Below are positions 22,005-28,098 of a stretch of DNA of 64,000 nucleotides, one piece after another. Within the stretch, counting starts at the first letter, position 1. Every line of letters begins with the position of its first letter. Both the position numbers and the translations under genes were made by a program. A model generated the notes under the pieces. The model did no database searches, was not told where the DNA came from, and saw only the letters and a program-made list of their open reading frames with translations. The stretch lies in IMG/VR virus record IMGVR_UViG_3300032240_003128, one strand, 5' to 3'. The stretch is from a virus.

Positions 22005-23339
22005 ATGAAGACAGTTGGTTTTGAACATCTTCATTGTCACAGCGAATACTCTGTCCTTGATGGGCTAGCATCAATTGATGAGTTAATTTCACGTTGGTCA
22101 CCACATGGCGATTATCTTTGCGTGACAGACCATGGATTGATGGGTGCTATCCCCAGTCTAATCACAAAGACAGAACAAGCTGAAAAGAAATTACAGCCTA
22201 TTTTTGGCTGCGAGCTTTATGTGAACTCTATTCACAATGAGCCAACAGAAACAGAAGATGCTAGAGATAAATTTATAAAAAATTTATCTCCACAAGAATT
22301 TGAAAATTTCAAAGTATCCAGTCACATCTTGGCAATTGCGGTTACGAATAAAGGTTATGAAAACCTAACCAAGCTTTGCAGCCTTGGCTGGAGTCAAGGG
22401 TTTTATCGCAAGCCTAGAGTAAATCACAAAACTCTTCAACAATACAAAGAAGGAATTGTGTTTACTTCTTGTTGCTGCGCTTCTGAAGCTGCCAGAGCTT
22501 TGCGTGTGCATGGAAAAGAAATAGCAGAATCTACTGTCCTGAAATATAAAGATATGTTTGGTGATAATTTTTACCTTGAAATGATGCTTTTAGATTTTGA
22601 GTATCAAAGAGAATATGATCAGTTTTTAGTTGAAATGCATATTAAACATCAGATTCCAATGATTATTACTAATGATGTGCATTATGCATATCAAGAAGAC
22701 AGCAAATATCAAACTTTGATGATGTTGGTAAACACTAAAAGAACATTAGCTGAAATTGAAAAGTTGAAAGCTGAAAATGCTGATGTGTTTGAATTGCAAG
22801 ATAGAAATTTATGGATGAAAACAGAAGAAGAATTGAATCAGAAATGGGCTGAGAAATATTCTGATGTGATTCCTTTGGAGATTTACGAACAAGCCAAGAT
22901 GAATACTGTTAAGATATGTAAGATGGCATCTGGTGTTAAGTTAGACAGAAGTGTTAAATTACCTAGATTGAATGATGATGAAGGCTCTTTAAAGGATTTG
23001 GTATTGAAAGGTATGTTTTACAGAGGAATATCCAAATCAAATCGTATTTACACAAAACGTGTTGCAGAAGAATTGGATCTTATTTTTAGGAAACAATTTG
23101 CTAGTTACTTTTTAATAGTCAAGAGTTTTACCGATGAAGCTAGAAGAAAATGCCAAGAGATTACAGGCTTGGATGGTGTCTATGCGGTTGGACCCGGTCG
23201 AGGTTCTGGTGCTGGTTCTCTCGTCTTATATTTACTTGGTGTTACTGACGTAGATCCTATCAAGCACGATCTTCTGTTCTCACGATTCCTGTCAGAGAAC
23301 AGAGGTAGTCAAGCTGTGCTGAAGTTTAGTCAATCTTGA
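22005..23339 (+). CDS. dnaE: DNA polymerase III alpha subunit, N-terminal part (PHP domain to start of palm)
   Basis: [65 protein letters not shown]; stops before PDxDxD. Confidence 0.9.
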   Translation: [444 protein letters not shown]

Positions 23340-23354
23340 TTGAAGTTTATATTA

Positions 23355-25620: not shown

Positions 25621-25626
25621 TAACAC

Positions 25627-28098
25627 ATGAACAGCATATCTGTCGAATCTTTTAACAAAATTATTAATAATCAGTTTAAGAAATTTCCTTTTCAGGATGA
25701 TCCACGATATCAATTCAGACTTAGATACGAATTATTAGAAATAGAAACTCAGAATTGTTGCGATTATTTTATCGAATTAGTCAGACAAAGGAAAAAATTC
25801 CCCAATGAGAACAATTTGTTAGTTCCTGTTCTGCTTGGCATTTGTAATGAGTACAATATTGAAGAAATGCCAAAAACCAAGACAAATGAGTTTCCTGATG
25901 TTGACGTTGATTTTTTAGCAGATGTTAGAGATTATTTAAAGAATGAGTTTACGCCTAGCCAATATAAAGCAGAAAATACTTGTTCTATTGGAACTTATGG
26001 TAGATATGCTTTGAAGAGTGCCATGATCGATATGGCACGAATTTATGGATACGACCGACAAGAAGTTTTAAACATTACAACAAACTTAAGAATGAAAGAT
26101 GAAGATGGAGATGAATTGACATACGAAGAAGCTCTTGAAATGTATCCTGAATTGAAATCTTATATGGACAAATATCCAGAATTAGCATTGGCTGTACAAA
26201 AACTTCTTCACAGAGTGCGCAATACTGGTAAGCATGCTGGCGGTGTAATTGTTGCCAAAGATGAGATCAACAAGTTTGTTCCTTTGATGAAAACGACTGG
26301 TGGCGATCAATTAGTTTCTCAGTTTGTTGAAGGTCTAGCAACACAAGAATTAGGACCAATTGGTCTTGTGAAATTCGATTTGCTTGTTGTTTCTGCTTTG
26401 GAACAGGCAGGTCATGCTGCCAAGATGATAAAAGATCGGCATGGCATCAAAGTGATTTGCGGGACCAATCATGATTGGGACAAAACTGATTATCTTAACG
26501 ATGATAAAGCCATATCTTATGCTAATGAAGCAGATTTAATAGGAATATTTCAATATGACAGTAATGGAATTAGAGAAGTTGTAAAGGCTTCTGGTATTAA
26601 CAGTTTTGACGATTTAGTTGCGATTGTATCTTTGTACCGTCCCGGTCCATTGAATGCTGAGATGGATCAGGTATTTATTAAAAGAAAAACTGGACAAGAA
26701 GAATATGTTATTCATCCTGTACTTGATCCTATTCTCAAATCAACTTATGGTGTTCTTGTTTATCAAGAGCAAGTAATGAGACTGCTTAATGTTGTGGGTA
26801 AGATTCCATTGAAAGATTGTGAAGCAATTAGAAAAGCCATTTCTAAGAAAAAGGTGTCTACATTTGTAAAATATAAAGAACAATTTATTGAAAATGGAAT
26901 GAGCGTTCTTGGAACAATTAGAGAAGAAGTCACAGAGATATGGAAAAACCTCGAATTTTTCAGTGCCTATGGTTTCAATCGCAGTCATGCAGTAAGTTAT
27001 ACCTTTATTTCAAGCCGTCAACTATATTTGAAAGCTTATTATCCTTTGGAATTTTTTACTGCTCTGTTGATGTTGGAGGCTAATGAAGAAAAGAAGCGCA
27101 TTTATATTACAGATGCACAGAATCATGGAATTGAAGTTAGAGTCGTTGATTTGAATAAGAGCAAGGCTAATTTCTCAATACACGATAATGCTATTTATAT
27201 TGGATTCGGTAATATTAAAGGCATAGGAATGGATACTGCTAATAAGATTGTGGCGTTACAACCATTTAAAGATGTGGACGATTTTCTTCGTAGGTTTGGT
27301 ACTGATTCAAGCGTATTGAAAGCTTTGATTCCGTTGAAGGTGTTTGGAGAAGACATAAAGAAAGCTTATAATTATTGGCAATCTTTTATGTCGAAAAATA
27401 AGAAAGTTATAGACAAGAACAAGAGATCTAACAAGTCTTATCTTGAGCTTAAGAAAACTGTGCTTTCTTTGTTGCCTGAAAAATATTGGAATCTAGATTT
27501 ATCTGAAGAGCTTTTTACCATTCTTAAGTCAATCCATGATTCTGCGGATGTTAACAAGTTATATAAAAAGTGGATAAGGATAAATTCGAAAGAAGAGGCA
27601 AAGATTGAAATTTCTTATGAAGATTTTGATGATGATGACATGGTGATTGAAGACAAAGAAGTATTGCTTGAACTAAACGATATTTGTGTTGCTGAGAGAA
27701 AGCATTATGGTTTTCAGTTTACTTGTAGGCTGAAAATGATGAAGATGTATAATGACAATTGTACGTTTGATCGAGTCATTAGCTCGCATGCTATGGGTGC
27801 TACCAAGCATATGGTTCAAGTTGAAGTCTTGGATGTAAATAAAAGATATTCAAAATCTGGTAAACCTTATTGTCAATTGGTAGCCATGGATAGTAATTTT
27901 AGAGTTGAAAGAATTAATGTTTGGGAAGATGACTATTCTGTATTCAAGCATTTGTTAGAGGTTAATAAGTGTTTGTCTATGCAAGTCAAACCACCTTCTA
28001 ATGGGTTTTCTACTTATAGTTTGAATTCTCCACCTAAGCATAGAAGACACTTACTGCCATCGTCAGAAATGGATTTTAGAATTGTTTTGATAGACTAG
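25627..28098 (+). CDS. dnaE: DNA polymerase III alpha subunit, catalytic part (palm, fingers, HhH, OB)
   Basis: FPDVDVDF, GKHAGGVIV, LVKFDLL, GIFQY, LYRPGPL, TYGVLVYQEQVM, YGFNRSHAVSY, IKGIG. Confidence 0.92.
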   Translation: MNSISVESFNKIINNQFKKFPFQDDPRYQFRLRYELLEIETQNCCDYFIELVRQRKKFPNENNLLVPVLLGICNEYNIEEMPKTKTNEFPDVDVDFLADVRDYLKNEFTPSQYKAENTCSIGTYGRYALKSAMIDMARIYGYDRQEVLNITTNLRMKDEDGDELTYEEALEMYPELKSYMDKYPELALAVQKLLHRVRNTGKHAGGVIVAKDEINKFVPLMKTTGGDQLVSQFVEGLATQELGPIGLVKFDLLVVSALEQAGHAAKMIKDRHGIKVICGTNHDWDKTDYLNDDKAISYANEADLIGIFQYDSNGIREVVKASGINSFDDLVAIVSLYRPGPLNAEMDQVFIKRKTGQEEYVIHPVLDPILKSTYGVLVYQEQVMRLLNVVGKIPLKDCEAIRKAISKKKVSTFVKYKEQFIENGMSVLGTIREEVTEIWKNLEFFSAYGFNRSHAVSYTFISSRQLYLKAYYPLEFFTALLMLEANEEKKRIYITDAQNHGIEVRVVDLNKSKANFSIHDNAIYIGFGNIKGIGMDTANKIVALQPFKDVDDFLRRFGTDSSVLKALIPLKVFGEDIKKAYNYWQSFMSKNKKVIDKNKRSNKSYLELKKTVLSLLPEKYWNLDLSEELFTILKSIHDSADVNKLYKKWIRINSKEEAKIEISYEDFDDDDMVIEDKEVLLELNDICVAERKHYGFQFTCRLKMMKMYNDNCTFDRVISSHAMGATKHMVQVEVLDVNKRYSKSGKPYCQLVAMDSNFRVERINVWEDDYSVFKHLLEVNKCLSMQVKPPSNGFSTYSLNSPPKHRRHLLPSSEMDFRIVLID

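Follow-up and report, generated by a model that had tools for sequence, protein, structure and literature searches.

Bacterial replicases belong to the C family of polymerases, whose catalytic subunit is treated as a single chain. To our knowledge, the natural splits of such enzymes seen so far are either rejoined by an intein or confined to a minimal phage module. The locus described here raises the question of whether a full-size enzyme of this family can work in two pieces. In the window, by which we mean the whole 64,000-nucleotide stretch of viral DNA that was analysed (IMG/VR record IMGVR_UViG_3300032240_003128), the dnaE of a large uncultured phage is divided, through the active site, between two genes. 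We consider it probable that these encode a naturally split, intein-free, two-subunit C-family replicative polymerase, the outcome of a partial duplication followed by complementary loss.

The upstream gene (22005..23339, plus strand; 444 aa) encodes the PHP domain, the beginning of the palm as far as RF..R, and a short basic tail; we refer to its product as the N-half. The downstream gene (25627..28098, plus strand; 823 aa) encodes the C-half, which comprises an N-terminal extension (N-extension), the catalytic strand, the rest of the palm, and the fingers, HhH and OB domains. Both open reading frames are present where the initial annotation had placed a dnaE in two genes, and between them lie two minus-strand genes to which no function is assigned. 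The break divides the DnaE profiles as well. The NCBIfam model TIGR00594 is split cleanly, positions 1-397 matching the N-half and 398-901 the C-half, and NF004226 is cut at 400/401 between the halves; Pfam DNA_pol3_alpha is covered from profile position 3 to 100 by the N-half, the C-half match (residues 97-259) starting at profile position 97. In the intact comparator LR756511.1, the closest phage record in the curated phage collection, a single 1179-aa open reading frame joins the equivalent of N-half residue 433 directly to that of C-half residue 88. The two halves score 282.3 and 344.0 bits, respectively, against TIGR00594, both below its curated whole-protein cut-off of 434.35 bits, and one PHROG family matching the N-half carries the label 'unknown function'; annotation pipelines will therefore under-call the replicase of such phages.

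The N-half contains a PHP domain, a putative 3'-5' exonuclease (22026..22586, plus strand; Pfam PF02811, residues 8-194, E=2.2e-33). A 20-member alignment shows no variation at D19, H43, E70, H107, C156/C157, D224 and H226, with H10 and H12 conserved at 90% or more. These columns are presumably the PHP metal ligands, and the candidate set, running from residue 10 to 226, thus falls partly outside the Pfam span. The functional copy of the duplicated palm segment discussed below (22980..23270, plus strand; residues 326-422 by hhalign) includes GRGS (23196-23207, plus strand) and is followed by RF..R and the conserved basic tail (23283..23336, plus strand; R427, F428 and R433), the tail consensus being R-G-G-[KR]-x-h-x-L-[RK]-F. 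G396, R399, G400 and S401 are invariant in 20 N-halves, as is RF..R, and among 120 N-halves the R, G and F columns of the tail are occupied in 120, 119 and 112 members. An AF2 model of the N-half aligned over residues 1..434 with residues 1..397 of E. coli alpha (Z 33.5, rmsd 8.4, 375 aligned), with the RF..R/tail region at pLDDT<50 in the isolated N-half. A 21-bp imperfect tandem repeat (23306..23349; 2.1 copies, partly palindromic; Tandem Repeats Finder) spans the N-half stop codon and sits between convergent genes.

The C-half carries the catalytic strand PDVDVDF (25894..25914, plus strand; residues 90-96, with P90, D91, D93 and D95 invariant) and the third catalytic aspartate (26377..26379, plus strand), D251 in KFDLL, which we take by motif to be the equivalent of E. 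coli D555. K249 and D251 are invariant, and PDxDxD and KFD are preserved throughout 19 C-halves. The fingers and HhH domains follow (26413..27336, plus strand; Pfam, residues 263-423 and 501-570; PF17657, E=1.1e-39, and PF14579 (HHH_6), E=2.8e-14), and the protein ends in an OB fold (27787..28095, plus strand; AF2 strands 728-799) that matches OB and SSB folds with a VIA-align Z of about 9. The AF2 model of the C-half matches DnaE structures at VIA-align Z 19-22. The palm motifs of a C-family DnaE-type polymerase are all present and invariant, yet they are distributed over two chains. As had been proposed from the initial reading of the locus, the cut lies just before the catalytic PDxDxD, the N-half stopping 11 residues after RF..R, and, by the motif columns of both families, GRGS and RF..R are confined to the half with the PHP domain and the three catalytic aspartates to the other.

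The initial annotation also described the opening of the C-half as a degenerate copy of the end of the N-half, and profile-profile comparison bears this out. C-half residues 6-81 (25642..25869, plus strand), a vestigial palm copy, align co-linearly with N-half residues 326-422 (hhalign, profiles of 206 N-extensions against 120 N-halves; probability 97%, E=1.1e-10). Weaker profile signals were given by PHROG 405 (E=7.8e-4) and by small profiles (E=0.0034); pairwise BLASTP found no similarity between the copy and the N-half, and Pfam detected nothing in the 90-residue piece alone. In tblastn, N-half and C-half pieces both align to the same 80-100 codons of distant intact DnaEs. The C-half profile begins its alignment with E. 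coli alpha at residue 312, and the structural alignment ranges of both halves corroborate the overlap. We conclude from these alignments that the two junction segments are genuinely homologous, the one a duplicate of the other.

The second copy has been altered in a defined way. The N-extension comprises four helices (pLDDT 77-91 in AF2), in the same order as in N-half 325-410, with the strand and GRGS loop deleted; indeed, in 212/212 C-halves no G[RK]G[SC] precedes the catalytic motif. Residues R31, E35, E38, F48, N60, N63, L64, L65 and L70 are invariant, and the N-extension has an invariant motif of its own, NENNLL..LLG. Pairwise identity is 41.6% in the N-extension, 28.2% in the linker and 40.1% in the OB domain. 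With invariant residues and a conservation equal to that of the OB domain, the decayed copy, on the evidence of its sequence, is not drifting freely. Of the duplication and reciprocal loss put forward initially, the duplication stands, as does loss of the strand and GRGS loop from the C-half; for the N-half side, a reading of the tail as a catalytic strand in decay gained no statistical support.

C-halves of this type make up 212 of the 268 relatives retrieved, and in 6/6 loci or records (the window, L002, L005, L006, G001 and G002) both halves are present on one strand with the N-half upstream. Across these six loci the gap between the halves measures 2.3-14.5 kb and its contents are variable and unrelated; the flanks are syntenic among relatives, with SpoVR upstream and orf180 and orf248 downstream. 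Both half families extend down to about 40-50% identity at full length, and both halves appear to be under purifying selection. To judge from these comparisons, the split is ancient and family-wide, and not peculiar to the window phage.

The genes in the gap of the window give few clues to their function. Gap gene 1 (23355..25262, minus strand; 635 aa) encodes six repeats of about 33 aa (LGxxNIDKL...). Pfam, PHROGs and NCBIfam contain no match to it, its PDB match is non-significant (E 0.26), and no homologue occurs in the gaps of relatives; the nearest clusters in the ESM Atlas consist of unnamed viral proteins, DUF4116 being present in one. Gap gene 2 (25268..25561, minus strand; 97 aa) is preceded by a GAGGTG Shine-Dalgarno-like motif and has no family match in Pfam, PHROGs or NCBIfam, and neither gene matches an endonuclease family in these collections. 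The promoter initially ascribed to the C-half gene was not upheld. The divergent intergenic region of 65 bp (25562..25626) contains a single sigma70-like match (25593-25620, TTGATT-16-TAAAAT with TG) that ends 6 nt before the C-half ATG, and such matches, which reflect consensus only, were not enriched over shuffled sequence.

How might such a pair of genes have arisen? On the reading that we favour, an ancestral dnaE would have been partly duplicated across the segment corresponding to E. coli alpha residues about 313-397, giving two genes whose contents overlapped. Of these, the upstream one would have retained the PHP domain and the elements that bind the dNTP triphosphate (GRGS and RF..R), and the downstream gene the PDxDxD metal-binding strand, the third aspartate, the fingers, HhH and OB; the downstream copy of the overlap would later have lost its strand and GRGS loop. 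Thereafter, neither product alone could complete the Pol-beta-like nucleotidyltransferase site, non-covalent association would be obligatory, and the active site would be built across the subunit interface, the docking elements most likely being the four-helix remnant of the C-half and the basic tail of the N-half. The space between the genes would subsequently have become a landing place for unrelated cargo. In the window that cargo is two antisense genes, and the halves would therefore be transcribed separately. Assembly as a heterodimer, the docking roles and the order of events are what we infer; the overlap itself could stem from tandem duplication or from an overlap-generating insertion, which are indistinguishable here.

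In favour of this reading, each half, when modelled alone with AF2, was confident save at the shared active site, the low-confidence stretches being C-half 85-101, 121-127 and 196-251 and N-half 399-402 and 426-444. The underlying alignments were shallow (19-20 sequences), so the low confidence in the palm may partly reflect alignment depth. Counting against our reading, it does not account for the geometry of the complex, since both helix copies fall on one location in the single-chain enzyme. It is possible, though we hold this only tentatively, that the overlap still works, the N-half helices and their decayed C-half twin pairing in a pseudo-domain-swapped manner, with the basic tail aiding and the active site held across the chains, and that the split was reversed at least once, the intact huge-phage DnaEs of the LR756511.1 group being re-fusions from which both leftovers were precisely removed. 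Maximum-likelihood trees suggest that the intact LR756511.1 group are secondary re-fusions; with the tree root not fixed, the small intact group may be either an ancestral sister or a secondary re-fusion.

Several other explanations of the locus have to be weighed. The intact gene in the closest curated phage record, together with gap genes unique to the window's own lineage, might point to recent damage or an artefact, either a late insertion breaking dnaE into a nascent pseudogene or a mis-assembly of unrelated contigs. We give this almost no credence, given that this two-piece layout, with its N-extension, recurs in hundreds of independent metagenomic clusters at 40-100% identity over full length, and that an identical C-half occurs on 4 contigs and a near-identical N-half on others. 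The initial annotation had named an assembly error or a pseudogenised half as fatal to its reading; both frames proved to be open, the catalytic residues invariant and the layout family-wide. Since the layout is common to hundreds of related phages, it is an old working design rather than damage. Rejoining of the halves after expression, by a split intein or by cis- or trans-splicing of RNA, deserves attention in a clade where inteins are rife: a C-half twin that is 100% identical (P0002) carries a contiguous 427-aa intein at the site between GFN and SH, intact relatives bear inteins, one of them between GRG and S, and in L006 a second position in dnaE is occupied by a true split intein. Nevertheless, in keeping with the earlier view that the ends lack intein motifs, Pfam found no intein domain (PF14890 or other) in either half at E<=0.01, although the same model detected the split-intein pieces of L006 as a positive control. 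In the window, YGFNRSH runs uninterrupted at C-half residues about 448-454, the intein site (about 452/453) being empty. The N-half runs on for only 11 residues past RF..R, the N-extension shows homology to palm helices and not to a C-intein, its end lacks HN+C/S/T, and Rfam revealed no intron; furthermore, opposite-strand genes separate the window halves, and up to 14.5 kb lies between those of relatives. We therefore regard rejoining as highly unlikely.

A different proposal is that the products act independently, the N-half as a free PHP exonuclease or phosphoesterase and the C-half as a self-sufficient polymerase whose N-extension replaces the triphosphate-binding element. NENNLL is invariant and sits at the position of the helix cap that follows GRGS, the N-extension folds confidently, alignment ranges suggest that it occupies its native place in the C-half model, and the halves can be up to 14.5 kb apart. 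Against this, GRGS and RF..R would be useless to a stand-alone exonuclease but are invariant in the N-half, which keeps its whole palm segment (326-433) at 60-90% pairwise identity; moreover, both halves occur in all six loci or records, the window included, and the palm of the C-half is not confidently folded alone. Independent action thus seems improbable. Finally, the same two-chain product may have had another origin, in which a free-standing homing endonuclease or other mobile DNA entered an intact dnaE and the overlap was a by-product of repair or a capture from the dnaE of a co-infecting phage. In L006 the gene directly upstream of the C-half, within the gap, is of LAGLIDADG type, the space between the halves is a hotspot of variable cargo, the two copies lack pairwise similarity detectable by BLASTP, and PMC2988022 reviews precedents (Aeh1 nrdA; gene 43 of Aeromonas phages). 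Against this, the gap genes of the window match no endonuclease family, and because the overlap is common to the whole clade the founding event is not readable from present gap contents. We consider this origin somewhat unlikely, and prefer partial duplication with complementary loss.

The locus can be compared with several known systems. In group 2.2 (T4-like) jumbo phages, Pol III alpha is split and minimal (Iyer, Anantharaman, Krishnan, Burroughs, Aravind 2021, Viruses 13:63; PMC7824862). There too the catalytic module consists of two stand-alone proteins from separate genes, with no intein invoked, and the cut likewise falls between the N-terminal, NTP-binding subdomain and the C-terminal one that binds Mg2+ and template. 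In contrast to that version, which is without PHP or other Pol III domains, the window enzyme is of full size, with PHP, palm, fingers, HhH and OB, and, comparing by description only, the decayed duplicate of the N-half end on the C-half is a further difference. The jumbo-phage version also accompanies a family B polymerase, whereas none was found in the relatives that were searched: PF00136 had no match in G001 (436 kb, split) or LR756511.1 (595 kb, intact). Because these relatives lack a family B polymerase and carry only a short PolA-like open reading frame, DnaE is likely to be their main replicase.

In cyanobacteria, dnaE is likewise two genes at separate loci, but each half bears part of an intein and trans-splicing ligates the two, the site lying far downstream in the fingers near GFN.SH (PMC2677866); the window has no intein, a continuous GFN.SH and a cut just before the catalytic aspartate strand. 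The 'fractured genes' of marine and freshwater phages carry a split intein together with a stand-alone homing endonuclease located between the halves (Dassa et al. 2009, PMC2677866). They resemble our locus in that phage replication genes, dnaE included, are broken in place with order and orientation kept and foreign open reading frames between, and the second break of the L006 dnaE is exactly such an arrangement; the break in the window differs in having no intein pieces and no recognisable endonuclease in the gap. A further comparison is with the intein-less 'genes in pieces' of T4-like phages, made by mobile DNA and reviewed in PMC2988022, namely Aeh1 nrdA (mobE), the T4 topoisomerase gp39/gp60 (mobA) and the gene 43A/43B split of Aeromonas phages 25 and 44RR. 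There an essential enzyme, in one instance a replicative polymerase, is split with foreign DNA between the halves, intact versions exist in related phages, and the two polypeptides reassemble without ligation. Those cases, however, concern family B or other enzymes and are recent and lineage-restricted, whereas the window split is ancient and family-wide; the text consulted mentions no overlap that was duplicated and then decayed. Unlike them, the window split cuts the Pol-beta-like nucleotidyltransferase site between the GS and DxD motifs.

The locus thus presents a full-size DnaE cut between the GS loop and the DxD strand and retained in this form across a very large clade of big phages. Its overlapping and later decayed duplication would be a built-in record of the origin of the split, and would plainly illustrate duplication, degeneration and complementation at a scale smaller than the domain. 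If the halves assemble as we propose, they would constitute a ready-made pair of self-associating fragments of possible interest to enzyme engineers, and a natural test case for a polymerase active site assembled from two chains.

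The initial annotation had placed DnaE in two genes, and both open reading frames are indeed present. The N-half (22005-23339, + strand; 444 aa) has a PHP domain and matches Pfam DNA_pol3_alpha over positions 3-100, and the C-half (25627-28098, + strand; 823 aa) takes up that model at positions 97-259 and continues through the fingers, HhH and C-terminal OB fold. The NCBIfam models are cleanly cut between the two: positions 1-397 of TIGR00594 lie in the N-half and 398-901 in the C-half (282 and 344 bits, both below the whole-protein cut-off of 434), while NF004226 is divided at 400/401. 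Consistent with this, an AF2 model of the N-half aligned to residues 1-397 of E. coli Pol III alpha (Z 33.5, rmsd 8.4, 375 residues aligned). The catalytic residues of the E. coli protein are D401, D403 and D555, so the N-half chain stops a few residues short of the first two. Invariant residues in the N-half are G396, R399, G400 and S401, together with R427, F428 and R433; those in the C-half are P90, D91, D93 and D95, together with K249 and D251. Since the GRGS motif is invariant in one half and the aspartates in the other, the Pol-beta-like nucleotidyltransferase signature (GS loop … DxD) is spread over two polypeptides.

The closest relative in the phage collection, which has no record near-identical to the window, was the 595-kb uncultured huge phage LR756511.1. 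Its DnaE is intact, a single 1179-aa ORF in which the equivalent of N-half residue 433 (…RFLS..R) abuts that of C-half residue 88 (…PDVDVDF). Two sets of other candidates were rejected: Streptomyces phages supposed to have two annotated DnaE genes, where the gene is in fact undivided (Annadreamy gene 58, 1096 aa, intact), and the IMG/VR loci L029 and L047, considered as C-halves that retain GRGS and hence as cases of another split point, each of which is an intact ORF whose PHP domain is divergent.

The split is not special to the window. A word-index search returned more than 100 C-half clusters (820-870 aa, 40-100% identity, 97-100% coverage) and a matching set of N-halves (440-480 aa), often on equally long contigs of up to 670 kb, and the best 80 matches of an exhaustive search of 50%-identity representatives were mostly C-halves beginning with the N-extension, the residues that precede PDVDVDF. 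That related phages share the split was confirmed in the window and five related loci or records, each with both halves on the same strand and the N-half 5' of the C-half. The gap between the halves measures 2.3 kb in the window, 2.6 kb in L006, 7.5 kb in L005, 8.2 kb in L002, 11.5 kb in G001 (the record of L003) and 14.5 kb in G002 (that of L004). Neither half contains an intein domain, in agreement with the original proposal; as a positive control, the same intein model detected both pieces of a genuine split intein in L006. An Rfam search returned nothing relevant and no match to an intron family. We conclude that this widespread split DnaE is neither an artefact, a pseudogene nor a spliced gene.

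It had further been proposed that the C-half begins with a degenerate copy of the end of the N-half. C-half residues 1-87 have no counterpart at the junction of the intact LR756511.1 protein. Pairwise BLASTP of one half against the other did not link the N-extension to the N-half, nor did the first 90 residues of the C-half alone match Pfam, and larger profiles were needed before the homology became detectable. When profiles of 206 N-extensions and 120 N-halves were compared, C-half residues 6-81 matched N-half residues 326-422 co-linearly (probability 97%, E=1.1e-10); a comparison of small profiles had given E=0.0034 in the expected register. PHROG 405 hits C-half residues 7-49 (E=7.8e-4), and does so at the position in the profile where homology would place them; the C-half profile alignment to E. 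coli alpha begins at residue 312. Furthermore, in tblastn searches of dozens of distant intact phage DnaEs, the footprints of the N-half (ending at residue 433) and the C-half (starting from residue 2-28) overlapped on the same 80-100 codons. In AF2 models the order of the four helices is also the same (C-half 6-17, 26-41, 45-53 and 65-69; N-half 325-339, 347-362, 366-387 and 405-410). The degenerate copy is thus borne out by the large-profile comparison and four further lines of evidence.

The C-half copy lacks the strand and GRGS loop, a deletion of about 21 residues, and G[RK]G[SC] was found upstream of the Asp strand in none of 212 C-halves. In place of the loop, the C-halves have invariant N60, N63, L64 and L65 (NENNLL); R31, E35, E38 and F48 of the N-extension are likewise invariant. 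Mean pairwise identity of the N-extension (41.6%) is lower than that of the palm (62.4%), equal to that of the OB fold (40.1%) and well above that of the linker (28.2%), so the remnant is under constraint. At the C-terminus of the N-half is a basic tail that hardly varies, R-G-G-[KR]-x-h-x-L-[RK]-F, whose alternation of hydrophobic and charged residues resembles the catalytic strand with Lys or Arg for Asp. That the tail derives from such a strand by decay (I-K-L-K-F versus V-D-V-D-F) is no more than an idea, which profile comparison did not support (E=0.12 in the wrong register).

These features are consistent with an overlapping duplication, after which the downstream copy would have lost its GRGS motif. 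The duplication and loss suggested in the initial annotation are therefore supported: the overlap is homologous and GRGS is gone from the downstream copy. Mobile DNA may have been involved, a possibility raised by the LAGLIDADG-type ORF in the gap of L006 (6357-7451, minus strand) and by precedents in T4-like phages, where endonucleases have driven the splitting of nrdA, topoisomerase and gene 43 (PMC2988022). The founding event cannot be dated from present gap contents.

How the five intact relatives (LR756511.1, P0270, P0278, P0281 and P0330) relate to this event depends on the tree. If they form the ancestral sister of the split genes, one event is needed; if they arose by re-fusion, two are. 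When the C-part, the N-part and concatenated pairs (N/C partners guessed from equally long contigs) were analysed by maximum likelihood, the five fell inside the split clade on strongly supported branches, and split monophyly appeared in 0 of 200 bootstrap trees. AU tests never rejected it (p=0.093, 0.69, 0.28 and 0.39). The ingroup topology was stable, the attachment of the long outgroup branch unstable. On parsimony we lean towards the intact group as ancestral sister, and consider re-fusion somewhat the less probable account, though a serious one.

Inteins at catalytic motifs are unusually frequent in this clade. The metagenomic protein P0002 is 100% identical to the C-half of the window apart from a 427-aa intein after residue 452/453, in GFNR|SH, and P0003 carries a shorter intein at the same site; near-identical phages are thus polymorphic for the presence of an intein. 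Inteins also occur in four of the five intact relatives, LR756511.1 being without: P0278 and P0330 have one within the GRG|S triphosphate-binding motif and further inteins at the YQEQ and GFN|SH sites. In L006 (3578-11566) DnaE is in three pieces, the first break being the intein-free N/C split and the second, in the fingers, being due to a genuine split intein, the two pieces flanking a TnsA-like/DUF7487 endonuclease ORF (7511-8824 | 8863-9876 | 9869-11566). Three-piece DnaE may well be common, since databases contain numerous proteins in the ranges 380-450 aa and 530-630 aa.

The gap of the window holds two minus-strand genes of 635 aa (23355-25262) and 97 aa (25268-25561), neither of which matched a family in Pfam, PHROGs or NCBIfam, and for which a PDB match was non-significant (E 0.26). 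At the end of the larger, a unit of about 33 residues (core LGxxNIDKL) is repeated six times in tandem; the ESM Atlas clusters nearest to this protein consist of unnamed viral proteins, one with DUF4116. The 97-aa gene has a strong ribosome-binding motif, GAGGTG (within 25540-25626), whereas no recognisable Shine-Dalgarno sequence precedes either DnaE half (25540-25626 and 21985-22004 compared), a contrast which hints that the gap genes may come from another source than the halves. The gap of L005 encodes DUF6065, a glycosyl-/methyl-transferase and an AAA ATPase, and cargo is unrelated between L005, L006 and the window. Since the flanks are syntenic (SpoVR upstream, homologues of 180-aa and 248-aa ORFs downstream) and the contents between them unrelated, the space between the halves acts as a landing pad for cargo. 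A 21-bp imperfect tandem of 2.1 copies, internally palindromic, spans the N-half stop codon between the convergent genes (23306-23349) and may be a bidirectional terminator or an insertion footprint. Just 5' of the N-half gene, a stem of 10 bp without mismatches (ACACCTCCAT … ATGGAGGTGT), with TTTTG after it (21944-21975), looks like the terminator of the preceding small ORF. A scan for promoters and terminators found no enrichment.

The window is AT-rich (GC about 33%) and has the look of a large tailed phage, encoding a helicase fragment, ThyX, a PrkA/DUF444/SpoVR cassette, glycosyltransferases and Laminin_G tail-fibre-like proteins. The phage-borne cassette, consisting of PrkA (AAA and kinase C-terminal domain), YeaH-like DUF444 and SpoVR, lies directly 5' of the polymerase region (16003-20882), and the position of SpoVR is syntenic in LR756511.1 and L005. 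An HldE-like ORF (12673-14064) combines a PfkB-kinase part with a cytidylyltransferase-like part.

How might the two halves work? Modelled alone, the C-half had pLDDT below 50 at residues 85-101 (including PDVDVDF), 121-127 and 196-251, with good N-extension, fingers, HhH and OB fold, and the N-half was poor only at the GRGS loop (399-402) and tail (426-444); the underlying alignments were shallow, so that these low-confidence regions are supportive only. Since each half is confidently modelled save where the other would be needed, and the invariant triphosphate- and metal-binding residues lie on separate chains, the simplest model is a non-covalent heterodimer, in which the palm sheet and active site would form across the interface. 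The AF2 model of the lone C-half aligned from residue 1 or 4 onto M. tuberculosis DnaE1 from residue 313 or 316 (ranges giving first and last aligned residues only), which suggests that the model places the remnant at its native position. The candidate metal ligands of the PHP domain are fully conserved, which makes a putative proofreading role plausible. Two large relatives were searched, G001 and LR756511.1, and neither showed a family B polymerase. Their PolA-like ORF is short, at about 430-440 aa (G001:C1:46483-47145 and LR756511.1:393932-394588), and its match to the family A polymerase domain is confined to the C-terminal two-thirds; DnaE is thus probably the main replicase. Neither has a recognisable beta-clamp domain, and these phages may therefore use the host clamp.

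A conceptually identical cut was described by Iyer et al (2021; PMC7824862) in the minimal Pol III alpha of T4-like jumbo phages, whose NTP-binding and Mg2+/template-binding units are separate and come from genes far apart. However, that protein lacks the PHP and other domains present in the DnaE of the window, and accompanies PolB. The split DnaE of cyanobacteria differs in having a split intein and in its site. The second break of L006 corresponds to the 'fractured genes' of Dassa et al (2009; PMC2677866), with split inteins and an endonuclease, whereas T4-type genes in pieces are intein-free like the DnaE of the window, yet recent and in other enzyme families. PHROGs has separate families for such halves (phrog_7513, phrog_11165 and phrog_12219), and our non-exhaustive literature search found no description of an intein-free split in a full-size DnaE whose junction is duplicated and decayed. 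This arrangement is relevant both to replication enzymology and to the evolution of split genes.
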